A DNA stretch of 64,000 bases from an uncultured Planctomycetales bacterium (lineage in GTDB: Bacteria > Omnitrophota > Gorgyraeia > Aquiviventales > Aquiviventaceae). The translations under genes were made by a program, and so were the position numbers. Of the stretch, positions 24,607 to 62,878 are shown one piece after another (the stretch's first letter is position 1; each line of letters begins with the position of its first letter). Under the pieces are notes generated by a model. That model was not told the DNA's origin, did not search any database, and was given only the letters and a program-made list of their open reading frames with translations. Location of the stretch: positions 5,159 through 69,158 of the forward strand of contig CAZUWM010000002.1 in NCBI GenBank assembly GCA_964624155.1, written 5' to 3'.

Positions 24607-24616
24607 CAGGTTGGCT

Positions 24617-26309: not shown

Positions 26310-26321
26310 TCACGACCTGAA

Positions 26322-27593: not shown

Positions 27594-27602
27594 CGCCTTT
27601 CC

Positions 27603-31512: not shown

Positions 31513-31515
31513 TTG

Positions 31516-41438: not shown

Positions 41439-42221
41439 TTAAAGGGCTGCTCTCACCGAATCGCCTTCTCGAATCGACTCCTTTTTGGATTGCGGCAGGA
41501 TCGCCGCGGCCGAGAGCTCGTCATAAATCTTTTCGACCTTCACCCGCCCGAGTATTTGGTTGTCGCGAACCACCTGGAATTCCTGACCAAGCGCCAGGCC
41601 GTGATTCTTGCCCAGGTTCATGACCACGAAGTCGTACTCTCGATTGACCACGACCACCTGCCCCGCCGACGCTCCAGCCGCCCCGCCATCCGTCACGACA
41701 ACGGTTTCCAACTCAACGGTGGGTTGGGCTTGCGAAAGCTCTAAGACCTTGTCTTCTAATTCCGTTTTGGCGGTCTCTGTCTGGTTGAGTTGGGCTTGGA
41801 GGGTCTTTTGCTGTTCGGTGAGCTGCGCAATCCGTTGGGTGAGCTGGGTGCGCTCCGCCCTGACTTGTTCGAGATCTTTGCTCAATCGATCGACCTCTTC
41901 CTGGCGCCCCTCCACAGCCTTCGCCAGTTCGTCTTTCGCTTTTTGCTCCTCGGCCAACTGCTCAACGGTCTGCTGGAGGTTGGTTTTGGCCTCGGTGAGT
42001 TCCCCTTCAAGTTGCTCTTTGAGGCTTGTCACTTCAGCAAGTTGGTCCTGCAGCGTCGTGTTCTCGGCTTTGACGAGGCGCAGCTCCTTTTCTCGTGCGA
42101 GGCGCACCGCCCGCTCTTGCATCTGGAAAAAGACCGCCACCCCGGCGCCGGCGATGGAGAGCAACGTGAAGATCCCTAAGACAATGATGGCGACTTTGCC
42201 GCTGAATGGGTGAGAGGTCAT
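41439..42221 (-). CDS. Membrane-anchored coiled-coil protein with conserved C-terminal beta-rich domain (paralog of 60246..61400)
   Basis: TM (VAIIVLGIFTLLSIAGAGVAVFF), ~170 aa heptad coiled coil, C-terminal FVVMNLGKNHGLALGQEFQVVRD... Confidence 0.5.
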   Translation of the reverse strand: MTSHPFSGKVAIIVLGIFTLLSIAGAGVAVFFQMQERAVRLAREKELRLVKAENTTLQDQLAEVTSLKEQLEGELTEAKTNLQQTVEQLAEEQKAKDELAKAVEGRQEEVDRLSKDLEQVRAERTQLTQRIAQLTEQQKTLQAQLNQTETAKTELEDKVLELSQAQPTVELETVVVTDGGAAGASAGQVVVVNREYDFVVMNLGKNHGLALGQEFQVVRDNQILGRVKVEKIYDELSAAAILPQSKKESIREGDSVRAAL

Positions 42222-42289
42222 CGAATGTGTGCCTCCTTTTCTATATGCCAGGAGCCTATCATACAGGGTGATGACTGTCAACTTGTGGC

Positions 42290-44301
<2,012 letters not shown>

Positions 44302-46390: not shown

Positions 46391-46500
46391 TCACAGATAC
46401 CACAGATGCACAGCACCACAGATAGCACAGATAAAGCACAGAATCTGTGGAACAGTTATCTGTGTCATCTGTGGAAGGTTCTGTGTCATCTGTGGTGTGT
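46391..46500. repeat. Large palindromic array: CACAGAT x5-6 / ATCTGTG x5, centred on cacagaatctgtg
   Basis: Between LacI start and secretin A stop. Confidence 0.85.
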
Positions 46501-46511
46501 TTTGCGAGGGC

Positions 46512-48065
46512 TCAGTTCTTCACAGAGGCGAGATGGGCACCGGTGGGATTGACGAGCTGGGCGGTGACGAAAATCAACAAGTTGGAACGCTCCACGGAAT
46601 CATCCTCCTTGCGAAACAGCGACCCGATGATCGGCATCGACCCCAGCACAGGCACTTGGGTCCTGGTCTTCGTCGTCGTGTCCTTCATCAGCCCTCCGAG
46701 CACGACGGTCTGGCCATTGTCGATCACCACGGTGGTTTCCAGGTTGCGGGTGGTAAATCGCGGCAGCGACACCTCTCCCCCAAATGTGTCGTCAGTTTTC
46801 TTTTCGCTCACTTCGGGCTTGAGCGCCAGGGTGATCGTCTTCAGATCTTGCCCCACGCTGGGTGTCACCCGCAACAAAATACCCAGGTCTTTGGTTTGAA
46901 AGTCTTGCGGCACTTGGATGAAGCGCGTCTCCCGTACCCCCGCTGAGGAGACGTCGTTGAAATCCCCATCTTTATTGAGATCCTCCCGTTTGACTGACGC
47001 TTCATAGCGGCTGGCGTAGACAAATTCCGTGACCACCTTGATGGCGGCGGTCTGGTTGTTGAGCGTCGTCACCCGAGGCGCCGACAGGGTCTTGGTTTTC
47101 TTGTTCTGGGTCAGCGCATGCAGGACCGCGGAATATTGCGTGCCGGTCAGGATGCCCTGGAAGGTGAGGTTCAGCGCGTTACCCGAGGTCTGATTGGCGA
47201 AATCGCTGAAGGCGATTTTCGTCCCGCGCTTGAGGGTTGGTCCCGTCGTGGCGAGCTGAACCTCGGGACCTTTTTTCACCACCAGATTCTCGGTGAGCTG
47301 CTCATCAAACCCCCACTCAAAGGTGTCCGTCAAGGTCAACTCAATAAAGCGGGCTTCGATCATCACTTGAATCGGCTCAACGTCCAGTTGGACCAGCAAC
47401 CGCTCGACTTGCTCGAGGTAGTACGGCACGTGCGCGACGATGAGCGCACCGCTGCGCTCATCGAGCAGGAAGGTGCTGTCTCCCACCTGGGGAATCACCT
47501 CAGTCAGGATATCCTTGACCGTTTTGAGTTCTTTGACGCCGGTGCCTTGCAACGCCACGCTCTCGCGCACATCCGCCAGCGGCTCAAAGGCGGCTTTCAA
47601 CGCCAACCCCTGCTTCAGATAGTACACCCGTGTATCGAGGGCTTCGGCTTCCATCTCATCGCGGCTGGCAATCCAGATGGTTTCACCATCCAACCGGTAC
47701 AGCAGTCCTTGGCCTTTGAGCAGGTAATCCAGCACGCGAGACAGGGGCATCTCCACGAGATGCATCGTCACCGGCTTGCCCGTCGTCTTGGCTTGCTCGG
47801 AGAGCACGATGTTCACCCCGCCTCCTTCGGACAGGAAGTCCATCGCCGCACTGAAATCGACTTCCTGGAAATCGGCGGTGACGGGTTGGTTCAACCGATC
47901 TCGAATGGTTTGTACGCTGACCGTGGTGGCCACCGGCGTAGAAGGCTCCGTCACCCCCGCCCACGTCGGGCTGGCAATGACCAAGAGGCACAGACCCGCC
48001 ACACCGGGATGTTGCGTGACTCTCCACTTCGCCAGGGTTGAACCCATTAACTTTTGGGGAGTCAT
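46512..48065 (-). CDS. Secretin (GspD/PilQ family), paralog A
   Basis: Signal peptide, N0 domain, secretin C-domain (RVTTLNNQTAAIKVV..., VPVLGSMPIIGSLFRKEDDSVERSNLLIFVTAQLV). Confidence 0.8.
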   Translation of the reverse strand: MTPQKLMGSTLAKWRVTQHPGVAGLCLLVIASPTWAGVTEPSTPVATTVSVQTIRDRLNQPVTADFQEVDFSAAMDFLSEGGGVNIVLSEQAKTTGKPVTMHLVEMPLSRVLDYLLKGQGLLYRLDGETIWIASRDEMEAEALDTRVYYLKQGLALKAAFEPLADVRESVALQGTGVKELKTVKDILTEVIPQVGDSTFLLDERSGALIVAHVPYYLEQVERLLVQLDVEPIQVMIEARFIELTLTDTFEWGFDEQLTENLVVKKGPEVQLATTGPTLKRGTKIAFSDFANQTSGNALNLTFQGILTGTQYSAVLHALTQNKKTKTLSAPRVTTLNNQTAAIKVVTEFVYASRYEASVKREDLNKDGDFNDVSSAGVRETRFIQVPQDFQTKDLGILLRVTPSVGQDLKTITLALKPEVSEKKTDDTFGGEVSLPRFTTRNLETTVVIDNGQTVVLGGLMKDTTTKTRTQVPVLGSMPIIGSLFRKEDDSVERSNLLIFVTAQLVNPTGAHLASVKN

Positions 48066-50398
48066 GTGACTGGGCCGCGGGAAGCGATAATCCGCGCGGT
48101 GATGAAGATGACGAGATTCTTGCGAGTGACCGTCTCGTCCTTCTGACGGAAGAGCGGCCCCACGAGCGGCAGGTCGCCGAAGAACGGCACTTTGGTCACG
48201 GTGGTGGACCGCGTGTCTTTCATGAGTCCGCCCAGCACCACGGTTTCGCCGTCATGAATCACCACACTGGTCGTCAGTTGGCTGGAGGTGAATTCCGGCA
48301 CCGTCACCCCGCCCCCCAGATCGCGGAACTGACTGAACGAGCTGACCTCCGGCACGAGGACCAAGGTCATCGTCTTCAGGTCCTTGCCGACGCTTGGGGT
48401 CACGTTGAGGAGGATGCCGACGTCCCGTTTTTGAATGTCTTGCGGGACGTTCACAAACTCGGTTTCCCCGGCATCGTCAAAATCCCCGTCGCCGTTGGTA
48501 TCAAATTGGACGAGCGAGACCTCGTAACGGGTGGGATAGCGGAATTCATCGACCACTTTGATCGTCGCGGGTTTATTGTTCAAGGTGGTCACGCGGGGGG
48601 CGGAGAGGGTCTTGCTCTTCTTGCTTTCCTCCAAGACATGGAGGACGGCCTCAAACTTCGCCGCGGTCATGACGCCTTGCAGGGTCAAATTCACTCCTTC
48701 GTCCTCGCGGCTCAGGGCGGGAAACTTAAAACCGCCTCCTGTGGCAATCTGATTGCCGCCCGTACGGCCGGGCGGGGTCGCCTGGTTGGGACGCGTGTCG
48801 GTCCGCTTGGTCAGATCATACGCATCCGTCAGCACCATTTCCAATCCGAGGTGCTCCAGATCCGTCATCGTGAGTTCGATCACTCGCGCTTCAATCAGGA
48901 CTTGAATCGGGGTGACGTCCAGTTGACTCAGCAGGTGTTCGGTCAATTGCAAGTTCTCCCCCGTGTTCGTGATAATCAAGGCGCCGATGCGTTCATCAAC
49001 GACCAATTTGCTGTCGGGCGGCTGGGGGACGGTTTGCGTAATCAGGTCTTTGATCGACTCCATTTGTATGAGTGGGCTCTGCTCGACCGCCGACACCTCC
49101 AAGGCTGAGGGACTGAAACCGCTGCGCAGGAAGAAGACACGGGTTGCCATCGGCTGATTCTCGAATTCTTCCTTGGTGGCCAGCAGGACCGCGTCCTGCT
49201 CGATGCGATAGGAAAGCGTGAGGCTTTTGGCCAAGTATTTGATCGCGTGCTCCAACGGCAGATCGTTAACCTTAATGGAAACAAGCTGCGTCTTGAGGTC
49301 CAACTGCGGGGAGGGGATGATGCTGATCCCCGCGCCATCCGCGATAAAGTCCACCACGTCCCCCAGGGCGACCTCGCTGAAATCCAAGCTGATGGGCTGT
49401 TGGAGCTTGGCGCTGAATTGCTCGCTCGCTCCATAGGGACTCGGCGGGGAGACGAGCCCGACGGTCTTGGCCTCCGGCACGACTTGCGCCTTGAGGACGT
49501 CGTGGATCATCTGGCGCTCATCCATCACAACGCGGCGCTCCAGCCGATCCTGCTCCTCCGTCAGCTTGGCGTCCTGCACCTGTTCCATCAACCGCTGGGC
49601 CGCTCGGTCCGAGGGGTCCTGGACCAAAATTTTCGTCAGCAGTTTCGTCGCCGTGTCATACTGGCGCTCGGCCAAGGCCACTTTGGCGTATTTCATGGCG
49701 GTCTCGAGCTCGATCCGTTTCTCCACCAACAACTGCTCCAACTGGGACACCACCGCTCCCTCGCCAGGTGCCGCCGTGGGAGCTCTGGCGGTGGTCCGCG
49801 CCTGATCTTCATAGCGCTTCAATTCCACCCGCGTGACGAGACGATCCGCCGCTTTGACGAGCGGATGGGAGGGATCGACGAGAGCCATCTGTTGCAGCAC
49901 GGAGATGGCGTCGGTGTACCGTCCTTGTTGATACAAGGCCAGCCCTCGGTGATACAACTCTTTGAGCTGACGCTCCCGGGCGAGTTGGATTTGACGTTGG
50001 GCTTCCCGACTTTTCTCGACGCGCTCTCGGACTTTCTCGCGCACCAGCTTCTCAGCCACTTCGGCGGCCTCGCGGCGAACCCCAGGCGCGCTCAGGACTC
50101 GAGCAGGACGGGTTTTGGAGACGTGTTCGGCGGATTGTTTTTCGCGAATCAGCGCTTCGGCGAGGGCGTTGGCTTGGGCTTGGAGGCGCGCGCAACGCTC
50201 GGCCTCTTCCCCGGTGAGGCCGGCACACGGCGAGCTTGTGGTGAGCGAAGTCGAACCAGAGGATGATTCGGCAGGAGGGACTGGCGTGAAGGACCACGTC
50301 GCGAGCGCACTCGCAAGGAGGACGCTCACCCACGACCGCAAGCGACGCCTCGACATGGTTTCATCGTAACCAACTGTCCCCGTGCTGTCAAGCGTCAT
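48062..50398 (-). CDS. Secretin (GspD/PilQ family), paralog B with ~400-aa coiled-coil/TPR-like N-terminal extension
   Basis: Same secretin core (RVTTLNNKPATIKVV..., VPFFGDLPLVGPLFRQKDETVTRKNLVIFITARII); ATGA-type overlap with paralog A. Confidence 0.8.
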   Translation of the reverse strand: MTLDSTGTVGYDETMSRRRLRSWVSVLLASALATWSFTPVPPAESSSGSTSLTTSSPCAGLTGEEAERCARLQAQANALAEALIREKQSAEHVSKTRPARVLSAPGVRREAAEVAEKLVREKVRERVEKSREAQRQIQLARERQLKELYHRGLALYQQGRYTDAISVLQQMALVDPSHPLVKAADRLVTRVELKRYEDQARTTARAPTAAPGEGAVVSQLEQLLVEKRIELETAMKYAKVALAERQYDTATKLLTKILVQDPSDRAAQRLMEQVQDAKLTEEQDRLERRVVMDERQMIHDVLKAQVVPEAKTVGLVSPPSPYGASEQFSAKLQQPISLDFSEVALGDVVDFIADGAGISIIPSPQLDLKTQLVSIKVNDLPLEHAIKYLAKSLTLSYRIEQDAVLLATKEEFENQPMATRVFFLRSGFSPSALEVSAVEQSPLIQMESIKDLITQTVPQPPDSKLVVDERIGALIITNTGENLQLTEHLLSQLDVTPIQVLIEARVIELTMTDLEHLGLEMVLTDAYDLTKRTDTRPNQATPPGRTGGNQIATGGGFKFPALSREDEGVNLTLQGVMTAAKFEAVLHVLEESKKSKTLSAPRVTTLNNKPATIKVVDEFRYPTRYEVSLVQFDTNGDGDFDDAGETEFVNVPQDIQKRDVGILLNVTPSVGKDLKTMTLVLVPEVSSFSQFRDLGGGVTVPEFTSSQLTTSVVIHDGETVVLGGLMKDTRSTTVTKVPFFGDLPLVGPLFRQKDETVTRKNLVIFITARIIASRGPVT

Positions 50399-50466
50399 TC
50401 ACAGATGACACCGATACACATGCCACAGATGACACAGATTAATTCTCTCTTCTGCGCTCTGTGGTG
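50396..50466. repeat. CACAGAT x3 with partial CTCTGTG partner
   Basis: secretin B start / PilP-like end junction. Confidence 0.7.
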
Positions 50467-50963
50467 GCCTTCGAGGCGAGCGGCAGGCGCACTTCTTCCT
50501 TCGTATCCAGCTTCAACAACACCACCTGATCTTCCGTAATCTCCACCACTTGAAAACCAACGACTTCCTGGCCGGCCTGCACGAAAAAGGTCTTTTTCTG
50601 TTGGCGATCCTCCAGAATCCCGCGCTGTTTGGTGCCCATCACCACGCGTCCTTTGAACACGAATTGCGGAGGGAGGGGTTGCTGCGGCGTCGCGCCCGCC
50701 TCCTCGGCCGGTTTCGGAACGTGGCGGCGCTGGCGACTGAATGGATTGGCTTGCAGCGCCTTCTGCAAGGTTTCCGGGTCGGTTTCCGAGGGCGGCTTCA
50801 AAGGTTCAGGTGTCGGAAACAATTCTTGGACATGTTCCCATCGTTCAGCCACCACGGAGGGAGGTTGACGGGCCCGCATCGTCTGCTGCCAATTCCACGC
50901 GACAAGCGAGAGCGCCACGAACACGACCGCCGTGACCATCGCTTCGAGCGGCGAACCTTTCAT
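50439..50963 (-). CDS. PilP/GspC-like secretin-interacting protein
   Basis: N-terminal TM, Pro-rich linker, C-terminal beta domain resembling PilP of locus 1 (...HEDQVVL...). Confidence 0.5.
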   Translation of the reverse strand: MKGSPLEAMVTAVVFVALSLVAWNWQQTMRARQPPSVVAERWEHVQELFPTPEPLKPPSETDPETLQKALQANPFSRQRRHVPKPAEEAGATPQQPLPPQFVFKGRVVMGTKQRGILEDRQQKKTFFVQAGQEVVGFQVVEITEDQVVLLKLDTKEEVRLPLASKATTERRREN

Positions 50964-51029
50964 CGTGATAAGAAATTGTGACGTATCGCCTTCTTTGCCT
51001 TCTCCATCTTCTTGCCCTCTGAAGCCTTC

Positions 51030-51839
51030 TTACGTTTTCTTCGCTTTACCGGAATCTTTCTTCTTGTCGAGCTCATCTTCAGTGGTGGGGAGTTTCGGAG
51101 CGGTGACGAAATAGCGGGCCACGACCAGCTCCACCGCCAAAGGCTTCGCCTCTTCCCCGCTCTCCGTCGAGGTGGTCGTCACCCGCAGACCCTGCAGGTC
51201 GACCAGCGGGTCGGCCCGATCGAAGGCGTTGAGCACTTTGGTCAAGACGTCAATCGGACAGCTCAGGCGAATGCGAACCGGCAGTTGCGTCAGAAACACG
51301 TCCTGCTCTTCAGCGAGCACCACCGGCTGAGGATCCTCCACCTTGAACGACTCAACGGACGCAACCCCCGGCACGGACATGACCACCTCCGCCGCCTGCT
51401 CGATCAACCCGACCTGCACGAGAAAGCGCGGAACGGCTTCCGGAGGGGGAAGATCTTTAGGAAATCCCAATTGCGTCGGGGCCGTCATGTTTCGAGCGGT
51501 CGCCAGCCGTTCGATGGTGCGCTGGACGGCATGGCTACGTTCTTGGAAGAGCAGTTGGGTGTCGGTCTGTTGGTCACCCAGCTGGAGGGGCGGAGCCATC
51601 CGCGCCAACGCCGTGTCGTACTGCGCCTCCAGCGCCTTCGTCCGCCGTTTGAGGTAGTCAACCACCTGGGGATTCGGTGGGAGTTGATCGCTGACATGGA
51701 GGTTCTTCAACGCCGCTTTCTTCGCCTTGATCTCTTGATCGAGCGCCTGGAGTCGAACCCGCCACACCGCAAAGGCTCCCACCGTCGCCGCGACCATGAG
51801 CAGCAACACGAGTTGTCCTAGATTGGTCTGTCGGGCCAT
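51030..51839 (-). CDS. GspM/PilO-like inner-membrane assembly protein
   Basis: TM + coiled coil + ferredoxin-like C-domain topology; follows GspL-like gene. Confidence 0.5.
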   Translation of the reverse strand: MARQTNLGQLVLLLMVAATVGAFAVWRVRLQALDQEIKAKKAALKNLHVSDQLPPNPQVVDYLKRRTKALEAQYDTALARMAPPLQLGDQQTDTQLLFQERSHAVQRTIERLATARNMTAPTQLGFPKDLPPPEAVPRFLVQVGLIEQAAEVVMSVPGVASVESFKVEDPQPVVLAEEQDVFLTQLPVRIRLSCPIDVLTKVLNAFDRADPLVDLQGLRVTTTSTESGEEAKPLAVELVVARYFVTAPKLPTTEDELDKKKDSGKAKKT

Positions 51840-53384
51840 TTATTTCTTCTTCGATTTTTTGGAGGATTTCGCCGGCGCGGATTTCCCCTTGGCCGAATCC
51901 TCCGCGACACTCGGCGTCGTCGAAGAGGCGTCCAAGAGCCGTTGGACTTGAATGGCAAACGCCACGACCTCCGTCTTCGTCGTTGGATCGGTCATGACGT
52001 TCGTCGCCTGGGGCTTGACCGTCATCCATTCAGGTTCGGCTTTCAAGCGATCGATGAACTGCGTCACACCCTGAAACGATTGCGCGAACCCCTCGAGCGT
52101 GCCGCTGATGTGCGGAAGGCTTTTGGTCAATTCGAGCATGGTCAGCCAGAGACTGTCCGGCAACGTCTCGGTGATCTGGACGAACGAACGGGTCATCCGG
52201 TCGTGGGTGCGCGCGAGAGACTCCAATTGCATGAGTCGATACTCCAGGTGGGCCTGGTGTCTCCGGATCGTCCGGACCTCCGGTCGAAGGAGCTGATACG
52301 AGTGCTCCTCTTTACGATAGGCTTCCACCACGGCCTGGCGAGATCGCAAGGACGTCAAGATCCCCTGGGCGCTCCACCCTGCGGCCATGAGTGCCGCCAC
52401 CAATCCGATGAGCTGGGAACCGCGGCGCAGGCGAGCCACGCGACGGGCACGCAGAATCTGGTCCACCAGATTCAACGAAAGCCGCGCGGTCCCCGCGGCC
52501 TGTAAGGCCAGCCCGCAGGTGGCCACGAAATCCTCCGCCCCGACGTCCGCCGTGGGGCGAGCAATCGTCTCTGTGGAAAGCGAGTGGACGGGACACCCGA
52601 TCGCGCGTTGGAGCGACGCTCCAAACGAGGATCGGCTCTCCGTGCTGCCGACGAGCCAGATGGATGGCGAAGCAGACAACGTCACTGCGGAGGTCTCCAG
52701 ATGTTTCTGCAATCCTTCCCACGAGCTCTTCAGCCACGTCACCGTCTGATCCTGATCCGCTGTCGACGGAAGGAGGCTGGGAAAGACATAGAGGCCGTTC
52801 GAGGCAATGATGATCCACTCCAACACCCGCCCGTCGAGCCGCACGACCAGACCCGCTCCAACAGCCGTCGGGGCGGACTGCAGCCAGGCATTCGCCACGG
52901 CCACCGCATTCACCTGGACGCCGCTCACCGCAACGCCCGCTCGCTGGCAAGCCGTAAGTCGCTCCTGGAGCACGGAGTGTTTGACAGCCGCCACCACCGC
53001 GGCCCCACCCACGCTACCGGATGGAGACGCCGAGGATTTTGATTGTCCATTGAGCGAGAGCCATTGGTAGTGCCAGACCGTCTGCGCCGCGTCATAGGGC
53101 AGGTGTTGCTGGAGTTCGAATCCCACCGCCAAATTCGCCCGAGCGCGATGGACAACGAGCGGCTGCACCGTCGTGACAATGGCGGAGGTCGTCGGCAACC
53201 CCAGCACCACCGGGGATTTGATGGGTAGCGTCCTGCGGACGTATTGGATGGCGCGCAGCAAATCAGGCCCTGAGGTGCCTCCCCAGGGCGCATGGGTGGC
53301 GGCGAGAAGTCGTGGAGGTTTCGTGCGAGGATCAAGGAGGACGGCGCGGACCGCCGCCGTCCCCAACTCCAGACCAACACTCAT
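51840..53384 (-). CDS. GspL-like protein (PilM-type actin-like domain fused to PilN-like TM/periplasmic domain)
   Basis: Internal Met MSVGLELGTAAVRAVLL (actin-like phosphate-1), central TM, PilN-like C-terminus, Lys-rich tail. Confidence 0.6.
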   Translation of the reverse strand: MSVGLELGTAAVRAVLLDPRTKPPRLLAATHAPWGGTSGPDLLRAIQYVRRTLPIKSPVVLGLPTTSAIVTTVQPLVVHRARANLAVGFELQQHLPYDAAQTVWHYQWLSLNGQSKSSASPSGSVGGAAVVAAVKHSVLQERLTACQRAGVAVSGVQVNAVAVANAWLQSAPTAVGAGLVVRLDGRVLEWIIIASNGLYVFPSLLPSTADQDQTVTWLKSSWEGLQKHLETSAVTLSASPSIWLVGSTESRSSFGASLQRAIGCPVHSLSTETIARPTADVGAEDFVATCGLALQAAGTARLSLNLVDQILRARRVARLRRGSQLIGLVAALMAAGWSAQGILTSLRSRQAVVEAYRKEEHSYQLLRPEVRTIRRHQAHLEYRLMQLESLARTHDRMTRSFVQITETLPDSLWLTMLELTKSLPHISGTLEGFAQSFQGVTQFIDRLKAEPEWMTVKPQATNVMTDPTTKTEVVAFAIQVQRLLDASSTTPSVAEDSAKGKSAPAKSSKKSKKK

Positions 53385-53390
53385 GAGGAT

Positions 53391-53415
53391 GATTTCACTG
53401 TGTAATCTGTGTTCC
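53391..53415. repeat. ATCTGTG-type short cluster
   Basis: cactgtgtaatctgtgttcc; GspL-like start / Ig-like end. Confidence 0.6.
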
Positions 53416-54975: not shown

Positions 54976-57900
54976 CGTTGCAGGACGGCTTGGATCCGTT
55001 TTGAGGCGACAGGCCGATTGCGCTCAAAGGCCTCGCCCATGCTCATCACTTGAAACACTTGTGAGCGGACCGTCAACCAGTTCGCCAACTGCCGAAACCG
55101 TGCCAGCCGATCATCCTCAGTCTCTCCCAACGTCGAGCCGATCAACACATCCCCAATCCCACGGGCTTTGCTGTCTTGATCGCCATAGGGCCGTCCCGCC
55201 ACGATCCGATCGACGATGGCCTCCGTCATCCCCGACAAGCTGAGCAGGACATCGCGTGACGCCGTATTGACGTTGATGCGGCCCACGAGGATGAGCTGGG
55301 GATCACACATCGCATGGAGGAAATGGCACACGTGGCTTTCCGATTCACACCGGATCTCAAGATGCAAGGTCTTCGGATCAGTGACCCCCATGCCCACCGT
55401 CACCTCACCCACAATCAGACGCCCTTGGGCATCGGTGATCCGAGGAGGCGTCCACTCGCCGTCCTCGCTCCATCGCACCGCCATCGTCTCCCCGCTCCAT
55501 CCATACAGACTCAGGCGATACGTCCCGTCGGGGATGTCCGTCCATTCCCAGACGCCAACGGCCTGACCCCCTGCCCCGCTGGTCTCATAGCCCGTCAGCG
55601 TCTCATGCCATCGATCCCCTCCGCCCAGGAGCGTGGCGGCTTGGCTTTCCAGTCGCAAGCCATCAACCGTCAGTTGATCGACAATCACCGCCAGGTCGTG
55701 GCTCTCCACCGGCTTCCACGCGATGCTGCTGGCCAACCCCGCCAACTCTCCCAATGAGCCCAGCGGTCGATTCAAAATGGTGATTTCCGTCGAGGGATCG
55801 TGCCGAATTTGCTCTTCTCCCGCCACCTCTAAGAGGCCTTCGTTATCGTTCGCCTCGCCGGGGGTGTATTGCTTCAGCGATGGATACCAATCCTCATCAA
55901 GCCCATCTTTGTCATCGTCGAGCACCACGGTCGGATCGCCCTTTTCAAGGCTCTGAAACCCCACGGAGGTGGGGAGTGGAATGCGGTACTCAATCTCATC
56001 CACCACCCACCCCTGGCGGTCCTTCAGCGCCAGCCGGGCGGAGGAAGCATCGGGCGGGAGGGTGCTGATGAGCCAATCCATATCGGGACTCAAGTCGCCC
56101 TCTTCTTCAAGGAATTCAAGCTGCACCACATTGGCATCATCCCGCATCTCCCACGCCGCCAGCGCCGTGATGTCGTTCTCCAGGCCGGGCTGCGTATCAT
56201 CCACGTCCACCGCCGCCACCAACACGCCGTGAGCAGGAATCTTGGCCCCCTCCGGCAGCGACACGGTCCGCATGGCCGCGATCCCTTCGATGGTCCAGCG
56301 GCTCACATCGACCTCCTGGTCGCTGAGGTTGATGAGCTCCACATACTCGCCGTCAGGCTCAAGGGACAACGACACCTTCTCAAAATAGTATGTCACCTCG
56401 CCGGCGGTTTTGCCAAGAGAGACGCGAAATTTTGTTTTCTTCGGCTGCTGCTCACCCGCCTGGGGGACTTCCACCACGATCAACGGCTCGTCATGCCGAG
56501 CCCCGTGGAAGGAGACGGTCGAGCTGCTGTTGATTTTTCCCACAGCGCTCCCAGATTGCCCATAGACCCGAAGGTGATACTTCCCCGGAGGGACGTAGTT
56601 GGATTGTCCCGCGGTCGTCGTCCACTCCCATTCAGCCGATCCCACCCCGCTGTTCGTGCAGGTGCTGGAGGCACATGACCAAGCGGAATTGCCTTTCGAA
56701 AAGGTGGCCGCACTCACCGTCAACTCGACCACCGGCGAGACCATCAACTCATTGAATCGCACCGCCTCGATGCCCCGCACGACCGTCCCTCCGCTCGTCG
56801 GCGGTTCGGTGGGCACGAGCTCCACGCCGCGAAACGCACACGAGCTGTCTTCGGCCTCGCGACAGGTCAGTTCCACCGTCATCGTCTCGCTGGTCAGTTT
56901 CAGCGTCCCAAACGTCTCATCGGAATCGAGGGAGGGTTTCGACTCCCCGTTGATCGTGACATCGCCCACTTTCGTTCCGGAAAGGCCCCGCACGATGACC
57001 TGGAAGGTGCCAAGAGGGACGGAGAGCGCCCAGGCAAGCGCAGACTCTGACGGGCTGCTGAGGTAATGACCCTCTGGTTGCGCCTGCCACGTCCAACTGC
57101 CCTGGTCGCCTTGGTTGGCCATCTCGTAGGGCGTGCTGTGCCGCACCACCTTGGAGAGGGCGAGGTCCGTATCGATGTAATCCGCCATATTGGCCGCGAG
57201 CTGCCAGGGATCGGCCCCGCCTTTTTCCAGCAAGGCGTTGAGGATTTCTTCGGCGGTGGCGGTATTGACGTTCAACCGCGGTTGGCCGGTGATGCTGAGA
57301 TTCGTATCCCAACTATACACCGTGGCGACGGTTGACAGCTTGGTGAAGGTCGCCTCATCCAACTCGCTGAGCGACAGCACGTCTTCCAGGGTTTCGAAGC
57401 GTCGATCATCCCCTCGCAAGGCCAGCGGCTGATACTCGTCCGGCTCATCCACCGTCCCATCACCGTCATCATCAATGTTGCCACGGCCTGGCTGACCATC
57501 CTCGCCGAAGCGGTAGCTCTCGACCGAGGTCGCGAGGGAGCCGGGCACGCCGATCTTCGAAAACAGCGAGGTGAGGCTCATGCCATCGACCCCATGAGCC
57601 GCTGGATCGGCCAGGGCGACGTTGAGATTCACCTTGCCCGCTTCATCCCTGATCAAGACGCCATAGCGTCCCCCCACCTCGCCGTGGCTGTTCGCCACCA
57701 GCCACCACCGGGCGTCAACGGTGTCATCCTCATCCACATCGACATCGGAGCCGGTCATCGCATCGACCCACGCCTCCGTCAGGTCGTCATAGCGCGATCC
57801 GAGCTGATCCTCATCCAACACGACCCACCCATGGGCGACACCGGCTTCCGCGATATACCGGGCTTGCGTTGAGGCGACGAATTGTTTGGCGGCCTGGGTT

Positions 57901-58085
57901 TCGAGAAACATCGAGAACACGAACGAGACCCCCATGATCGCCACGACGGTGAGCACGCTGACGACGATGAGCAGCGCAATCCCCCGCTCTCCAATGCGGA
58001 ATGGGGAATGGGGAATGGGGAATCTAAGCCTTCCATTCCAAATTCCAAATTCCGAATTCCGAATTCGATCAGCTGGTGGGGACAT
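54972..58085 (-). CDS. Giant GspK/PilX-like minor pseudopilin (~1040 aa)
   Basis: N-terminus ...ERG|IALLIVVSVLTVVAI (GspK-type, no Glu5); two ComEA/HhH-like LNVNTAT / INVNTAS motifs typical of T2SSK; ~700 aa of extra beta-rich sequence. Confidence 0.6.
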   Translation of the reverse strand: MSPPADRIRNSEFGIWNGRLRFPIPHSPFRIGERGIALLIVVSVLTVVAIMGVSFVFSMFLETQAAKQFVASTQARYIAEAGVAHGWVVLDEDQLGSRYDDLTEAWVDAMTGSDVDVDEDDTVDARWWLVANSHGEVGGRYGVLIRDEAGKVNLNVALADPAAHGVDGMSLTSLFSKIGVPGSLATSVESYRFGEDGQPGRGNIDDDGDGTVDEPDEYQPLALRGDDRRFETLEDVLSLSELDEATFTKLSTVATVYSWDTNLSITGQPRLNVNTATAEEILNALLEKGGADPWQLAANMADYIDTDLALSKVVRHSTPYEMANQGDQGSWTWQAQPEGHYLSSPSESALAWALSVPLGTFQVIVRGLSGTKVGDVTINGESKPSLDSDETFGTLKLTSETMTVELTCREAEDSSCAFRGVELVPTEPPTSGGTVVRGIEAVRFNELMVSPVVELTVSAATFSKGNSAWSCASSTCTNSGVGSAEWEWTTTAGQSNYVPPGKYHLRVYGQSGSAVGKINSSSTVSFHGARHDEPLIVVEVPQAGEQQPKKTKFRVSLGKTAGEVTYYFEKVSLSLEPDGEYVELINLSDQEVDVSRWTIEGIAAMRTVSLPEGAKIPAHGVLVAAVDVDDTQPGLENDITALAAWEMRDDANVVQLEFLEEEGDLSPDMDWLISTLPPDASSARLALKDRQGWVVDEIEYRIPLPTSVGFQSLEKGDPTVVLDDDKDGLDEDWYPSLKQYTPGEANDNEGLLEVAGEEQIRHDPSTEITILNRPLGSLGELAGLASSIAWKPVESHDLAVIVDQLTVDGLRLESQAATLLGGGDRWHETLTGYETSGAGGQAVGVWEWTDIPDGTYRLSLYGWSGETMAVRWSEDGEWTPPRITDAQGRLIVGEVTVGMGVTDPKTLHLEIRCESESHVCHFLHAMCDPQLILVGRINVNTASRDVLLSLSGMTEAIVDRIVAGRPYGDQDSKARGIGDVLIGSTLGETEDDRLARFRQLANWLTVRSQVFQVMSMGEAFERNRPVASKRIQAVLQR
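57996..58067. repeat. GGAATGG x4 followed by (A/G)AATTCC x4 (inverted arms)
   Basis: 5' end of giant GspK-like gene / 3' end of GspJ-like gene; translated as NSEFGIWNG...FPIPHSPF. Confidence 0.8.
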
Positions 58086-58674
58086 ACACGACGGTCTCAA
58101 ACTGTTCCGGTTTCTTCGCGCCGATCGTCACGGTGATCCGAATCGCTTTGGGGACTCGGGCTTCCTGCTCGCCATCCTCCCGCCCATCCCATGCCGTCAG
58201 CCACTGCGTGCCATCGAAATACGACAGCTCCAGTCCAACGACGTCGGTCCCGCACACCTCATCCGTGCCGGTGGCTTCGTAATCGCCGTCCGCAGGCTCG
58301 TCATCATGGCACATGAACTCGTGCTCGCTGTTGAGCCAATACCCCCGCTCCACAAGGCCGGAGCGCCCGGCCAGGACCCCGACGAAAAACACCTCGTCTT
58401 GCGTGCTGTCCTCTTTGAATCGGGTGGCCTCGGCGTCGTTGCCCACAAACGGATACCGCTCCTGGGTCAGACACGAACCGAGTTCCCTCGCGAAGAGATC
58501 AAACAGGAGACGAGCTTGTTGATAGCGCTCCGTCCGCAACTGCCCGCTGCGCCACGTCTGCGTGATCCCGCGGAACATCAGCATCGTCGAGCCCGTGATG
58601 GTGATGAGAATCGCCATCGCGATCATCAGTTCCACCAACGTCAGCCCCTGGGGTCGGGGCTCTACATTTGACAT
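58069..58674 (-). CDS. GspJ/PilW-like minor pseudopilin
   Basis: MSNVEPRPQG|LTLVELMIAMAIL prepilin motif; ~200 aa. Confidence 0.6.
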   Translation of the reverse strand: MSNVEPRPQGLTLVELMIAMAILITITGSTMLMFRGITQTWRSGQLRTERYQQARLLFDLFARELGSCLTQERYPFVGNDAEATRFKEDSTQDEVFFVGVLAGRSGLVERGYWLNSEHEFMCHDDEPADGDYEATGTDEVCGTDVVGLELSYFDGTQWLTAWDGREDGEQEARVPKAIRITVTIGAKKPEQFETVVYVPTS

Positions 58675-58741
58675 TGCAGGGCGCGAGGAGTCTCGGTCCG
58701 ACCCCATGGTCTGTTCTTGACGATTTTTTACCCTGAACCCG

Positions 58742-59185
58742 TTAACTTTTAGGCTTGCGGAGGTAGGTCACCAGATCAAGGGTTCGACCGCGGCCCTCCT
58801 GCGCCCACCCTACCGAGACGGTCACCCGCTTGAGACTGGTCGGATCCACCACGTCCTCGACCTCCGGTTGATCGATCGTCAGGACGATGGTGTAGTCTTC
58901 TTCAGTCGTCGTGGAACTCCCCACGGCGAGGTCGTCCCAGGACGTGAGTTTGGTTGAGGCCATGGTGCGTTCGGCCAACAGAGTGGCTCGACTGACCTGC
59001 TCCGCGCGACGAGAAGCCCGCAGGCCCATCGGGAAGACCCGCATGGATCCCACGAGTCCGACGGAAAGGATCCCAATGGCGATGACGACTTCCACTAACG
59101 AGAAGGCGGAAGGCGGAAGGCGGAAGGCGGAAGTAGTTTTCCACTTCCCACTTCCCACTTCCCACTTCCCACTTCGACAAGTCAT
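58742..59185 (-). CDS. GspI/PilV-like minor pseudopilin
   Basis: ...PPSA|FSLVEVVIAIGILSVGL prepilin-like N-terminus; 27-aa leader encoded by GGAAGGC/CACTTCC heptamer repeats; ATGA overlap with gspF-like gene supports the start. Confidence 0.55.
   Translation of the reverse strand: MTCRSGKWEVGSGKWKTTSAFRLPPSAFSLVEVVIAIGILSVGLVGSMRVFPMGLRASRRAEQVSRATLLAERTMASTKLTSWDDLAVGSSTTTEEDYTIVLTIDQPEVEDVVDPTSLKRVTVSVGWAQEGRGRTLDLVTYLRKPKS
59089..59176. repeat. GGCGGAA/GGAAGGC x4 followed by CACTTCC x5 (inverted arms)
   Basis: Encodes leader peptide of GspI-like pseudopilin. Confidence 0.85.
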
Positions 59186-60249
59186 CCGAGGATCTTGGTG
59201 AGTGAGAGCAACGGCAGGAACATGGCAATCACAATGAAGCCCACAATCCCACCCACGCCGACAATCAACAAAGGCTCAAGCAGCTGCGTCAACCCCCCCA
59301 GCATCACCTCGACCTCTTCCTCGTAGTTATCCGCCAACTGGACGAGCATCCGATCGAGCTGGCCGGTCTCCTCGCCGAGGGCCACCATCCGGGAGACGAG
59401 CGGCGGAAACGCCCCGGAGACTTCGATGGGACGGGCCAGGGATTCACCGGCGCGCAGACTCCGCTCCACGTCCTGCAAGGCATCATCCAGGACCGCGTTG
59501 GAGACGGTCATGCGGACCGTTTCCAAGGCGTTCAGGATCGGCACCCCGCTGGAGAGCAACGTTCCAAACGTCCGGGCGAAGCGCGCGATGAGGAGCTTGT
59601 GAATGAGGGTCCCGAAGAGCGGCAGTCCCAACAGTAATCGGTCGACCTGCCGTTTTCCGCCGGGGGTCTTCATCAGCGCTTGGAGCAGCGCCACGAATCC
59701 TGCGGCGGCGATCGCCACCAACCACCACCATTGACGCACGATATTGCACAGGATGATCAAAATCCGCGTGGGCAGGGGCAAGGCGGAGCCCAGCTCGGTG
59801 AACATCCCCATGAAGGTGGGGACCACGAAGGCCATCAGGATGATCAAGATGCTCACGGCGGCGAACATCACAAAGGCCGGATACATCAAGGCGCCGCGCA
59901 CGCGATCGCGCAGCCGTTGTTGTTTTTCCATCACCTCGGCGAGCCGCTTGAGGATTTCTTCAAGGAGCCCGCCGACTTCTCCGGCCCGCACCATATTGAT
60001 GTAAAACGGAGGGAAACACCGTGGATGCCGCGAGAACGCTTCGGAGAGCTTGACGCCCGCTTCCACGTCACTGGCGACCAGGGTAAAGACTTGGCGCAAG
60101 GACCCCGGTTCCAGTTGGTCGCTGACGGTACGGAGGGATCGCAGCAGCGGCATGCCGGCTTTCACGAGGGTCGCCAACTGCCGGGTGCACACGACCAGTT
60201 GAGCGCGCGAGGCGCCGCCAAACCGGAATCGCCCCCGCGAAGCCATCAC
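59182..60249 (-). CDS. GspF/PilC-family inner-membrane platform protein
   Basis: T2SF repeats, 3 TM; 355 aa. Confidence 0.8.
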   Translation of the reverse strand: MMASRGRFRFGGASRAQLVVCTRQLATLVKAGMPLLRSLRTVSDQLEPGSLRQVFTLVASDVEAGVKLSEAFSRHPRCFPPFYINMVRAGEVGGLLEEILKRLAEVMEKQQRLRDRVRGALMYPAFVMFAAVSILIILMAFVVPTFMGMFTELGSALPLPTRILIILCNIVRQWWWLVAIAAAGFVALLQALMKTPGGKRQVDRLLLGLPLFGTLIHKLLIARFARTFGTLLSSGVPILNALETVRMTVSNAVLDDALQDVERSLRAGESLARPIEVSGAFPPLVSRMVALGEETGQLDRMLVQLADNYEEEVEVMLGGLTQLLEPLLIVGVGGIVGFIVIAMFLPLLSLTKILG

Positions 60250-61400
60250 GGGCCGCGTTGAACGGCAAGATCACCAACGTGGAGGGCATCGGCATTCTCA
60301 GGAGCAATCAAATCGCACGCCGCAAGTTGTGGACGCACGCGGACCGCAACCGCTCGTCCGATCATCTCAACCCCGCGCACCAGGTCGAACGTCATCCCGA
60401 CGCGGACCCCCTCCTCGGCACCCTGGTTGATGATGAGAAAACGATGGGGGGGATTGACCTCAAGCACGTGGGCACGGATGGCTGCCATGGTGGGGGGCCG
60501 TTCCTTGCGGACGATGATCGGAGGCAGTTCGACCGTCTGCGAACCGACGCCTCCCCCTTGCTGTGAGCGGCGTGCCTCCTCCACCAACGTGTTGGTGTGG
60601 GGGCGCGGCTCCGTGGGTCGGGGAGCGGATGATGCGTTGGCCGGCTCCTGGGGCCTCGCCGGCTTGACGACGACCCCTGACGGCGAGAGGATCGGCAGGG
60701 GAGTGTGTTGAGGAGCGTTCGAGGAATCCAGAGGCCGTTCAGGTGTCTGAAGGACCGGAGCGTGGCCTTGGAAATTCACGGCATCCGATGAGAGCGAGGC
60801 GTCCGAAGGAGCGCTGGTCACCGTCTGCGGGATGATCGGCCACACGGCCTCCACGCGAGGCGGGAGGATCCCACCTGTCGTTCCGGTTGAAACGGCTGGG
60901 CCGCCTTGGGTCAGTTGACGTTCGAGCGCCGCCACCCGTTCACGCATCTGCCGGTAATCGCGATCGGCCAGGGTCAGGCGATTCCGAAGGCGTGCCGCCA
61001 CGTGTTCCAGGTCTCTTTTCTCTTCTTCCAGACGACGAGCCTGGTCTTTGGCGTCGTTGCGCTCCCGTGCGAGTCGAGCGACTTCAATTTCAAGACGCGC
61101 CTTCTCGTTTTGAAGCGCGTCATGGCGCACTTGGACGTCACGAAGGGCCGCGAGTTCCTGGGTCGCCGTGGTGAGCTGCCCTCGCACGCTCTCAAGACGC
61201 CGCTCCAATTCGCTGCGCTCAGTCTGCAGTTGATCGAATTGTTGTTGAAGCGCTTGGTTCTGTTCTTTCAGCGTGCTGATGGCTTGTTCTTTCGCCGCAA
61301 CGTCTTGCTTCAAGCGGGTCAGTTGCAGCCACGGCCCAATGGCGAGCCCCGCCATCCCGAGCACACCCACCACTCCAAAGGCGATCAACGGCCGATTCAT
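60246..61400 (-). CDS. Membrane-anchored coiled-coil protein with Pro/Ser-rich linker and conserved C-terminal beta-rich domain
   Basis: TM, ~150 aa coiled coil, C-terminal FLIINQGAEEGVRVGMTFDLVRG... homologous to C-terminus of 41439..42221. Confidence 0.5.
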   Translation of the reverse strand: MNRPLIAFGVVGVLGMAGLAIGPWLQLTRLKQDVAAKEQAISTLKEQNQALQQQFDQLQTERSELERRLESVRGQLTTATQELAALRDVQVRHDALQNEKARLEIEVARLARERNDAKDQARRLEEEKRDLEHVAARLRNRLTLADRDYRQMRERVAALERQLTQGGPAVSTGTTGGILPPRVEAVWPIIPQTVTSAPSDASLSSDAVNFQGHAPVLQTPERPLDSSNAPQHTPLPILSPSGVVVKPARPQEPANASSAPRPTEPRPHTNTLVEEARRSQQGGGVGSQTVELPPIIVRKERPPTMAAIRAHVLEVNPPHRFLIINQGAEEGVRVGMTFDLVRGVEMIGRAVAVRVRPQLAACDLIAPENADALHVGDLAVQRGP

Positions 61401-62636
61401 CTAGGCTTGGATGAACACCTCACGAATCACCCAGCAGGCGGCTCCTAACGCGACCGCCTGATCTCCTAATTTCGCCGGCAACACATCCACGAGACTCGCG
61501 TGCTCTTCGTAGGCGTACCGTTTCACGGCCCGCCACACCGGCTCCAGCAGGAATGAATCAGCCTGTTCAATCCCTCCCCCGATCACGACGACCTCAGGAT
61601 TCAGGAGGTTAACGATGGTGGCGATGCGAACGCCCAATTGCAAGGCGGAATGCTCGATGAGCTCTTTCGCGAGTTGATCACCCGCGTGGGCGGCTTTGAT
61701 GACCACGTCCATCGTCAACTCATCGAGGTGGCCATTGACCAATTCCTTCATCGTGGAGGCGTTCCCTTCCCCGATGAGTTTCTTCGCCTGGTTGGCCAAG
61801 CCGAGATCCCAGACATTGGAGACGAGGAATCCGGGGCCTTTGATCCACGTGATGTAATCATCGTTGTTGGGCACCGAGATGCCGACTTCCCCGGCGCTGC
61901 CGCATGAGCCCCAATAGACATGGCCGTTCAAGATCAGACTAGCCCCGACATCCGAGTAGAGGTAGACCATGTTCTCCACGCGACGATCCAGGCCGAGTCG
62001 ATACTCTCCGTAACCCGCGAAGCTCGCGTCGTTGCCGATGAAGACGGGCATCTTGAACTCGCTTTCCCACCGACTTTGGAGGGCCAAGTAACTCGTTCGG
62101 CTGCCGCGATGCGAGGAGGTATCGCGGACGGTTCCTGCCCGCTCATCCAAGATCCCACCGACCCCAATGGCGATCCCCTGGATTTTTTTCGGATCCACGG
62201 GACTGGTGGTGAGCACGTCACGAATGAGCTCGACCGCTTGCGCCAGCGCCTCATCCATCGTCGTGATGGCGCGGGATCGAGTCCGTTGATGCACGATGCT
62301 CCCGCGCAGATCCGTGATGAGGCCTCGCATCGTGACATGGGGGACGTTCATCGGTCCGACATCCACCCCGATCGCAAAGCCGGATTTCGCGTGGAGCTCG
62401 ACCAGCACGGGTTTCCGACCGCCGGTGGACACATCAAATCCTCGCTCCACCACCAGCCCGTGCTTGATGAAATCCGCCACGTAGTTGGAGACGGTCACGA
62501 TGTTGAAACCGGTGCCTTGCGACAACTCGGTCCGCGTCATCGGTCCCCGTTGGCGGATGAGCTCAAGCAAGCTCAAGCTCTTTTGTTCCCGTTCCGTGAG
62601 CCGATGATCTTCGAGCAGGGTCCGTCGTCGAATCAT
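61401..62636 (-). CDS. ROK-family transcriptional regulator (NagC/Mlc-like; N-terminal wHTH + sugar-kinase fold)
   Basis: HTH LLELIRQRGPMTRTELSQGTGFNIVTVSNYV; ROK glycine-rich regions; zinc motif partly degenerate (WGSCGSAGE). Confidence 0.75.
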   Translation of the reverse strand: MIRRRTLLEDHRLTEREQKSLSLLELIRQRGPMTRTELSQGTGFNIVTVSNYVADFIKHGLVVERGFDVSTGGRKPVLVELHAKSGFAIGVDVGPMNVPHVTMRGLITDLRGSIVHQRTRSRAITTMDEALAQAVELIRDVLTTSPVDPKKIQGIAIGVGGILDERAGTVRDTSSHRGSRTSYLALQSRWESEFKMPVFIGNDASFAGYGEYRLGLDRRVENMVYLYSDVGASLILNGHVYWGSCGSAGEVGISVPNNDDYITWIKGPGFLVSNVWDLGLANQAKKLIGEGNASTMKELVNGHLDELTMDVVIKAAHAGDQLAKELIEHSALQLGVRIATIVNLLNPEVVVIGGGIEQADSFLLEPVWRAVKRYAYEEHASLVDVLPAKLGDQAVALGAACWVIREVFIQA

Positions 62637-62783
62637 GGTTCGACTCCGCTCACCATGACCCTGAGCAAACGAAGTGCGTCGAATGGGTCATCCCCCCACC
62701 TGTCTGTTGATCGCCATGCGAAAACTTTCTTTCAGACTATTGTTGAGGACTTTTAGAAGATTGTCAAGCAACGACTTACAACA

Positions 62784-62878
62784 TCACAGATGGCACAGAG
62801 ACTCCACAGATGGCACAGATACATTCCCTCTGTGGTTCTCTGTGTTCTCTGTGGTGTGTATCTGTGCTATCTGTGGTT
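62784..62878. repeat. Palindromic array: CACAGAT x4 / TCTGTG x5
   Basis: Between glycoside hydrolase stop and ROK regulator start. Confidence 0.85.

Follow-up and report, generated by a model that had tools for sequence, protein, structure and literature searches.

Positions 46512-62636 of the minus strand of a 64,000-nucleotide stretch of contig CAZUWM010000002.1 (GenBank assembly GCA_964624155.1, an uncultured Planctomycetales bacterium placed in the Omnitrophota by GTDB) hold a real and conserved operon, which encodes the envelope parts and the tip of a second machine resembling a type II secretion system (T2SS) or a type IV pilus. The whole stretch is hereafter called the window, and the other machine that it encodes is referred to as locus 1 (19178-32592). 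Family assignments come from Pfam and NCBIfam hidden Markov model (HMM) scans of about 50 open reading frames (ORFs) of the window. The operon consists of twelve ORFs, given here from 5′ to 3′ with lengths in amino acids (aa).

61401-62636, minus strand: ROK-family protein with an N-terminal winged helix-turn-helix (HTH), a NagC/Mlc-like regulator (Pfam ROK 136.9 bits, gathering score 22.9)
60246-61400, minus strand: bitopic coiled-coil protein with an N-terminal transmembrane (TM) helix, a coiled coil, a Pro-rich linker and a C-terminal beta-barrel (sequence reading and profiles)
59182-60249, minus strand: GspF/PilC-type inner-membrane platform, here GspF2, without the first ~55 residues (two T2SSF matches, 225 bits)
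58742-59185, minus strand: GspI/PilV-like minor pseudopilin, prepilin motif SA/FSLVE (N_methyl 21.2 bits)
58069-58707, minus strand: GspJ/PilW-like minor pseudopilin, G/LTLVE (N_methyl, and T2SSJ 23 bits)
54972-58100, minus strand: giant GspK, 1042 aa (NF037980 83 bits, T2SSK and the lamin-tail domain, LTD)
53416-54975, minus strand: Sec-signal Ig-like protein with Big_13 and an OmpL47-type barrel (Pfam, NCBIfam)
51840-53486, minus strand: PilM-PilN fusion of GspL-like architecture, 548 aa, likely start M35 at 53384 (Pfam PilN 33.6 bits)
51030-51839, minus strand: GspM/PilO-like bitopic protein (T2SSM_b 27.6 bits, above the gathering score of 21.7)
50439-50963, minus strand: GspC/PilP-like protein, 174 aa, a TM helix and a small beta domain (NCBIfam GspC variants, E ~1e-5)
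48062-50398, minus strand: secretin B, with a signal peptide, a ~300-aa helical extension of tetratricopeptide repeat (TPR) type, N0, N1 and the secretin domain (Secretin 140 bits)
46512-48065, minus strand: secretin A, with a signal peptide, N0 (STN), N1 and the secretin domain (Secretin 136 bits)

All twelve ORFs are present at these coordinates, and the junctions between them, counted from ROK, measure 0, −4, −4, 34, −32, −4, −71, 0, 66, 40 and −4 nt; the −71 junction between the Ig-like and PilM-PilN genes becomes +31 with the likelier start M35. The flanking gaps are larger (230 nt 5′ of ROK and 83 nt 3′ of secretin A), and the genes read as one compact block headed by ROK. An earlier description of this DNA, made from its letters alone (hereafter the sequence-only reading), had proposed a single minus-strand transcription unit with overlaps or gaps of at most 70 nt, and this spacing is borne out, no internal gap exceeding 66 nt. 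Its gene order and family calls also hold against Pfam and NCBIfam, the GspC/PilP call being a weak one that scores far under the cut-offs. Note that the NCBI annotation already gives such proteins names like GspK and PilM, and that an exact-sequence look-up of the giant GspK returned no record. Within the operon, the scans found neither a T2SSE ATPase nor a GspG/H-type pilin, and no match to a prepilin peptidase (Peptidase_A24) appeared among the ORFs scanned across the window; no riboswitch or other known RNA was found in the 44-64 kb region. Since the operon is without an ATPase, a main subunit and a peptidase of its own, the machine would have to borrow all three.

The operon belongs to a family of related loci (numbered with an L), of which 16 came from a genome scan and a further 80 from a metagenome scan. 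The homologs come from metagenome-assembled genomes (MAGs) labelled Candidatus Omnitrophota/Omnitrophica or, in two cases, Planctomycetales, and those with informative isolate names are of groundwater origin and high G+C. Where the contig was long enough to be assessed, the gene order proved the same, in the 16 genome loci and in about 33 metagenome loci that span 6 kb or more, and none of these ~50 loci contains an ATPase or a major pilin. The three features pointed out earlier as unusual, namely the tandem secretins, a GspK of three times the normal size and the lack of ATPase, major pseudopilin and peptidase, were confirmed and are common to all related loci. Compared with the closest relative, eleven comparable genes display ratios of nonsynonymous to synonymous substitution rates (dN/dS) of 0.06-0.24, with 0.23-0.29 for the secretins in other pairs; every tested gene, both secretins included, is under purifying selection. 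In the outgroup L023, whose GspK is 35% identical, the order is GspF, GspI, GspJ, GspK (1111 aa), Ig-like protein, a small MerR protein, PilM-PilN, GspM, GspC and secretin, and L073 has a similar core without ROK and the coiled-coil gene.

The relatives also inform on the missing ATPase. At 36-39% identity, GspF relatives keep the ordinary ATPase-GspF adjacency, so that its loss is particular to the present GspF family, in which the lack of an ATPase in cis is a stable trait. A third group (L074, L076 and L077) has the coiled-coil protein, GspF, GspI and GspJ only, the coiled-coil gene standing directly upstream of GspF2 there as well. In L076 (8768-12043), these four genes (the platform being of GspF2 type) make up a reduced module with RND efflux genes on one side and housekeeping genes on the other, and no K, L, M, C or D genes were found within the 10-kb flanks. 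The pairing of the coiled-coil protein with GspF is therefore older than its association with ROK.

The two secretins are 42% identical to each other and 25-28% identical to the locus-1 secretin, and they therefore arose by duplication within the system. In both, N0 and one Secretin_N domain were detected, and the NCBIfam scores remain under the cut-offs: TIGR02517 reaches 183-186 bits (cut-off 351) and Amuc_1098_fam 172-175 bits (cut-off 750, with 106 bits on the locus-1 secretin), while secretin B gives 186 bits with GspD, 175 with Amuc_1098 and 165 with PilQ. That both are intact and neither is a pseudogene agrees with their dN/dS values (0.11-0.23 for B, 0.24-0.29 for A) and with an intact secretin A in seven relatives; only in L019 is secretin A found in two pieces (16909-17412 and 17719-18336), through a frameshift or pseudogene formation or through an assembly error. 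The long N-terminal extension of secretin B had been described as a coiled coil, and the extension is indeed present, but it holds TPR repeats (TPR_2, TPR_14 and TPR_19 matches) and not a coiled coil alone. TPR pilotins such as PilF and Tgl are known, and by analogy the extension may act as a built-in pilotin-like module. In six relatives (L010, L011, L012, L014, L015 and L019), an extra Sec-signal TPR protein of ~570 aa is encoded between the PilP-like gene and secretin B; the window has no such protein, which may serve as a pilotin-like accessory in its own right. A derivation of the secretin B N-terminus by fusion of this protein was considered and rejected, the similarity being that of TPRs in general. 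Acidic DxDxDG loops with the appearance of calcium-binding sites were observed at residues 362-371 of secretin A and 633-642 of secretin B, and a search for this motif found none in the locus-1 secretin.

The three pseudopilins together form the set expected at a filament tip. The GspI-like protein has weak matches to Verru_Chthon B, PilV and XpsI, and the GspJ-like protein scores 24.8 bits with gspJ TIGR01711, under the cut-off; both keep Glu5. The N-terminus of GspK (G/IALLIVV) is without Glu5 and of GspK type. In known T2SS structures (PDB 3ci0), GspK caps the GspI-J-K tip, and the operon proteins provide all three of these components. In an AlphaFold2 (AF2)-type model built from 30 database homologs, with a predicted local distance difference test (pLDDT) score of 78, GspK has a pilin helix at residues 41-99 and a core that is split into ~100-316 and ~940-1042 by an all-beta insertion at ~317-935. 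This insertion of ~620 residues (65 kDa) is modelled as jelly-rolls resembling carbohydrate-binding modules (CBMs) of the CBM6/35/36 type, with the lamin-tail domain at 582-705, and its best structural matches are carbohydrate-binding modules. Because GspK caps the tip in the known T2SS, the insertion would sit at the very end of the filament and be displayed there, and its most likely ligand is a glycan, either on a polymer or on the surface of another cell. Side by side with this, DxDxDG acidic loops of calcium-binding appearance lie at residues 210-222, near-invariant in the 30 homologs, and at 728-737.

The lamin-tail domain and an HHH_3 domain of ComEA type are found in 30 of the 30 GspK homologs, and they raise the question of a competence pseudopilus in which the helix-hairpin-helix (HhH) and lamin-tail domains would bind DNA for uptake through PilQ/HofQ-like secretins. 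A single-sequence search of GspK against the PDB gave nothing useful beyond weak matches to ComEA-related proteins and to an EEP nuclease family protein, which point the same way as the weak HofQ and HofP matches. However, the HhH belongs to the ordinary GspK fold (T2SSK family) and is no addition to it, the insertion matches carbohydrate-binding modules best, and no ComEA, ComEC or DprA turned up among the genes that were scanned within the operon and next to it. We therefore regard a role in DNA uptake as very improbable.

Directly after GspK in all loci, the outgroups L023 and L073 included, stands the gene for the Ig-like protein, whose profile matches SiiE-type BIg domains (1e-5). In order, two small pilins, a large tip pilin and a Sec-dependent protein correspond to pilV-pilW-pilX-pilY1 of type IVa pili (T4aP). 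This likeness, together with the PilM-like fold described below and the short PilQ-like N0-N1 secretins, leaves the earlier suggestion of a secretion or uptake filament system rather than a second pilus without support.

The inner-membrane proteins have a mixed affinity. The PilM-PilN fusion was modelled with AF2 (pLDDT 78) as an actin-like domain (36-331), a TM/coiled helix (342-440) and a ferredoxin-like PilN domain (446-517). Foldseek comparisons of this model place its cytoplasmic part closest to the PilM of T4aP (5eox at 1e-16; 2ych at a TM-score of 0.71) and then to EpsL/GspL (3e-12). The fusion and its GspL-like architecture, as proposed before, thus stand, with the correction that the PilM fold of its cytoplasmic part is complete. 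The GspM-like profile matches the PilO of Myxococcus xanthus (E=0.042), a single-sequence PDB search with this protein having given nothing useful, and the GspC/PilP-like protein has a 19-residue motif in common with the PilP-like protein of locus 1. A PilM with PilN, PilO and PilP partners, as in T4aP, is therefore found here with PilM and PilN fused. GspF2 scores higher with GspF (TIGR02120, 385.6 bits from model position 56, under the cut-off of 424) than with PilC (337 bits); this platform is 43% identical to that of locus 1, with a dN/dS of 0.06, and GspF is its best family in spite of the cut-off. The coiled-coil protein is conserved in its C-terminal ~95 residues, whose profile matches TsaP of M. 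xanthus (3jc8_Ta, E=1.7e-4), and each of the two barrel families FlgT_C and MreC is matched by 8 of the 11 members, a single-sequence PDB search having been of no use. TsaP is a secretin-associated ring protein. A second protein made of a TM helix, a coiled coil and a FlgT_C/MreC-like barrel, a distant paralog of the operon protein, is encoded at 41439-42326 (minus strand), between a BioD-like gene and MurA-MreB-MreC-PBP2-RodA, a position kept in relatives.

When set against a classical T2SS, the operon shares the GspF platform, GspM-like and GspC-like partners, a secretin, and a cytoplasmic actin-like domain joined to a periplasmic one as in GspL. It differs from a T2SS in that GspE, GspG, GspH and GspO are absent, the two secretins are short and one of them is TPR-extended, GspK is giant, the GspC-like protein has no PDZ domain, the PilM fold is complete where that of GspL is truncated, and genes for a TsaP-like coiled-coil protein and ROK are added. 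When set against the M. xanthus T4aP (PDB 3jc8), the PilM fold, the PilN/O/P-like partners, the short PilQ-like secretin and the TsaP-like barrel are alike, and PilB/PilT-type ATPases with MshEN domains are encoded nearby. Unlike in T4aP, PilM and PilN form one protein, there are two secretins, neither with an AMIN domain, the tip is of GspK type (HhH) and not PilX, and PilA, PilB and PilT are absent in cis, being found ~15-20 kb away in locus 1. In its make-up, the operon resembles a hybrid of T2SS and T4aP.

The T2SS side of this hybrid has to be weighed in its strongest form, that of a true T2SS in which a short periplasmic pseudopilus capped by GspI-J-K pushes folded exoproteins through the secretin(s), candidates being the Ig-like protein or large glycoside hydrolases such as the upstream enzyme resembling glycoside hydrolase family 2 (GH2), with the CBM-like tip recognising glycosylated or sugar-binding substrates instead of working outside the cell. 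The preference of GspF2 for GspF, the GspI/J/K set, the fused GspL architecture and the T2SSM_b and GspC-like matches all fit, and a Sec-signal Ig-like protein is always co-encoded. A GH2 gene lies upstream in the window and in L004, L055, L064 and L085, and preprints tie T2SS-like loci and GH2 enzymes together in Omnitrophota. On the other hand, GH2 is not upstream in L011 and L023, none of GspE, GspG, GspH and GspO is encoded in cis, the secretins appear to be short N0-N1 forms without N2/N3 or an S domain, and the PilM fold in the cytoplasm is complete. Moreover, no periplasmic piston is known to have a tip insertion of 65 kDa, which is more in keeping with a surface adhesin. We regard a true T2SS as the main rival, though an unlikely one.

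Among described clusters, a close one is the 'pili-like' Amuc_1098-1102 cluster of Akkermansia muciniphila, from the PVC group, which likewise has no ATPase or pilin genes, a secretin of 805 aa and a PilM-like protein of ~600 aa (PMC5332112). The succession of a secreted protein, a PilM-like protein, two small proteins and a secretin is parallel in this cluster (NF042912, NF045709), and Amuc_1101_fam is the best named HMM for the PilM-PilN fusion, matching 13 of 13 orthologs (best 9e-23). However, the scores (56.4 bits against a cut-off of 650 for the fusion, 175 and 172 against 750 for the secretins) indicate related proteins and not members, and the ortholog profiles of the GspM-like and Ig-like proteins matched no Amuc chain among PDB sequences. 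Homology of the Ig-like and GspM-like proteins to Amuc_1102 and Amuc_1100 was rejected, the profiles hitting just generic BIg and PilO. The Verru_Chthon cassette (TIGR02596-02600) gave N-terminal matches of 18-31 bits, under cut-offs of 51-332. In Omnitrophota, a T2SS-like locus beside giant genes has been reported with gspD, gspE, gspF and rcpC, and a role in adhesion to prey with carbohydrate-active functions was proposed (West-Roberts et al. 2023, 10.1101/2023.11.21.568195). The relative L024, with a GspK of 760 aa, has GspG-H-I-J-K followed by a Rotamase_2 peptidyl-prolyl isomerase, which the same preprint names for its locus; the present operon, by contrast, lacks both the ATPase and the Rotamase gene of that locus and is not flanked by a giant gene (>25 kb). 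In the literature searched (tandem or heteromeric secretins, Verru_Chthon, Omnitrophota secretins and pili), we found no description of an operon that is ATPase-less, has two secretins and contains a giant GspK.

Candidates for the missing motor and subunit lie in locus 1, which encodes a complete machine by itself: PilT, an MshEN-only protein, two PilB proteins (570 and 568 aa), PilC, two PilA-like and two minor-type pilins, PilM, PilN, PilO, a PilP-like protein and a secretin. The relevant features are the following.

29306-31018, minus strand: PilB paralog 1, 570 aa, with the MshEN motif for cyclic di-GMP (c-di-GMP), candidate extension ATPase in trans (PilB 607 bits, GspE 577 bits)
27603-29309, minus strand: PilB paralog 2, candidate extension ATPase in trans (PilB 635 bits, GspE 605 bits)
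24617-25722, minus strand: two major-type PilA/GspG-like pilins, the second starting at M95, candidate filament subunits (N_methyl, and GspG and PilA N-terminal matches)

The ORF of the second ATPase, at first 646 aa long, has its true start at M79 (ATG at 29309), giving 568 aa and an ATGA overlap with the upstream ATPase. The sequence-only reading had taken the product of 29306-31018 for a GspE-type ATPase, which was not upheld, both paralogs favouring PilB by the same 30 bits and both carrying MshEN. Its two extra PilA-like pilins are there, and they are 46% identical to each other. Supply in trans from locus 1, as it proposed, is plausible from the sequences: the tandem PilB pair next to PilT/PilC is conserved in four genomes, all of which have the operon, and a PilB-570 ortholog occurs together with a giant GspK on at least seven contigs, matched by their length. 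In the locus-1 copies L020-L022, which share their contigs with the operon copies L015, L008 and L018, the order is PilT, MshEN protein, PilB, PilB, PilC, pilin(s), PilMNOP and secretin, and the pilin genes of locus 1 vary from one to four among relatives. The PilB paralogs (45% identical) and the two GspF proteins (43%) have diverged to a similar extent, as would be expected if ATPase and platform had been duplicated together. The PilB paralogs are thus old, which fits the idea of a separate ATPase for each platform. Yet neither paralog is GspE-like, both being equally PilB-like and both having MshEN, and we infer only tentatively which ATPase, and likewise which pilin, would serve the operon.

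The stand-alone 163-aa MshEN protein (30990-31481, minus strand) lies between PilT and the first PilB, is conserved in L020-L022 and shares 36% identity with the N-terminal part of either PilB paralog. A HAMP-GAF-GGDEF protein (32663-34105, minus strand) is encoded just upstream in the window and in L021. The c-di-GMP-binding MshEN motif of the two PilB paralogs suggests that filament extension is controlled by c-di-GMP.

The confinement of major pilins and ATPases to locus 1 would also fit a single pilus, for which the operon would be an alternative tip or accessory module, comparable to the multiple minor-pilin/PilY1 clusters of Myxococcus, with its extra envelope genes redundant or conditional. 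In L020, locus 1 has one pilin and no minor pilins, and the operon's GspI-J-K may be the sole priming set nearby. In contrast, the operon has its own constrained GspF (dN/dS 0.06), PilM-PilN, GspM, GspC/PilP and two secretins, its parts are 25-43% identical to their locus-1 counterparts, and this full second envelope complex is kept in ~50 loci. An accessory module of the locus-1 pilus appears quite unlikely on these grounds.

The best explanation, to which we give moderate confidence, is a second type IV filament machine, intermediate between T2SS and T4aP, with a borrowed motor and pilin and a glycan-binding tip. GspI-J-K, probably with the Ig-like protein at the PilY1 position, would prime a filament on GspF2; the filament would most likely consist of a borrowed PilA-like pilin, be driven by one of the two c-di-GMP-type PilB paralogs of locus 1, and be processed by a prepilin peptidase from outside the window. 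An alignment complex of PilM-PilN, GspM and the GspC/PilP-like protein would guide the filament to a pore of secretins A and B (mixed, stacked or alternative), and the tip would show its CBM-like modules to bind a glycan. ROK and the coiled-coil protein with its TsaP-like barrel would have been added 5′ in this clade, under a conserved promoter.

Several observations weigh against this explanation. None of the 30 GspK homologs matches a Pfam CBM family, the CBM-like call being structural only, and jelly-roll folds are common. ROK and the coiled-coil gene are missing in the outgroup operons L023 and L073, and the promoter and terminator scans overall did no better than chance. The PilB pair was seen together with the operon in four genomes, all from a single clade in which macrosynteny is strong, without a negative control, and no direct link ties either PilB or any locus-1 pilin to the operon. 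Finally, the 64-kb window alone was seen, and a dedicated ATPase, pilin or peptidase could lie elsewhere in the genome.

A more far-reaching version of the second filament machine was also formulated, in which two machines share one pool of motor and pilin, a retractable filament tipped with GspK-CBM passes through a mixed secretin pore as a sugar-regulated 'grappling hook' for polysaccharide or for the wall of a host or prey cell, and the coiled-coil protein with its TsaP-like barrel occupies the position of the ATPase gene. Taken as a whole, this picture is speculative and rather doubtful.

In all, a complete envelope set for a type IV filament is maintained by purifying selection without a motor, subunit or peptidase of its own, which makes the sharing of motor and pilin a testable idea. 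Two of its features, the tandem secretin pair in one operon and a GspK with CBM-like modules on the tip side, are not described in the literature searched, and they bear on how secretin pores are built and on the binding specificity of filament tips. For the Omnitrophota, which are suspected of living as predators or symbionts, it offers a concrete candidate for a device that attaches to cell surfaces or glycans.

The carbohydrate link proposed in the sequence-only reading survives in part. In its favour, ROK is among the best conserved genes of the clade (60-82% identity among relatives, dN/dS 0.09) and the GspK insertion is CBM-like; against it, ROK and the coiled-coil gene are absent from the outgroups, GH2 occurs in some relatives only, and LacI belongs to the synteny of the region. 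Past the operon, the order of LacI, oxidoreductase, BioF-like, BioD and second coiled-coil protein is the same throughout the relatives, which makes the LacI flank a matter of clade-wide macrosynteny and not of operon membership, and the GH2 and LacI flanks reflect local synteny. ROK itself is an equivalog of neither NagC nor Mlc in NCBIfam (132 bits with the NagC model, cut-off 650), and the HTH_IclR, HTH_24 and MarR matches at residues 19-66 are weak, all just under the gathering scores. The usual zinc motif of ROK proteins is GHx9-11CxCGxxGCxE; at residues 239-252, the motif looks degenerate (GHVYWGSCGSAGEVG, with a single Cys). ROK thus looks divergent, and its ligand and metal binding may differ from those of NagC/Mlc. 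A sugar-responsive layer added in this clade through ROK is plausible from the gene content, and ROK would then exert sugar control over the operon.

ROK abuts the next gene in the window, and the gap reaches ~460 nt in relatives. Upstream of it lies the following element.

62739-62768, minus strand: sigma-70-like promoter CTTGACAA-N17-AACAAT, 5′ of ROK (10 of 12 consensus positions)

A single copy of the motif CTTGACAA-N17-(G/C)AATAG precedes ROK in the window and in each of L004, L011, L015 and L019, and it is the only promoter-like motif shared across the five lineages. Inside the operon, counts of promoters and terminators were not above those of shuffled sequences.

Separately, arrays of CACAGA(T) units followed by (A)TCTGTG units, with up to 15 units at a spacing of ~9-11 nt, form long imperfect hairpins at gene junctions (4 matches of the pattern against 0.08 expected). 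They lie at the following positions.

7407-7442: CACAGA/TCTGTG array
20989-21166: CACAGA/TCTGTG array
31479-31502: CACAGA/TCTGTG array
46392-46526: CACAGA/TCTGTG array
50400-50463: CACAGA/TCTGTG array
62785-62875: CACAGA/TCTGTG array

Four of the six sites fall within the two pilus/secretion loci or at their ends. As arrays stand at both ends of the operon, they were considered as operators for ROK or LacI, and this was rejected, as they are absent in the closest relative and occur at other junctions; L019 has two, also at other junctions. In sequence, they look like lineage-specific repeats similar to repetitive extragenic palindromes (REP) or miniature inverted-repeat transposable elements (MITE).

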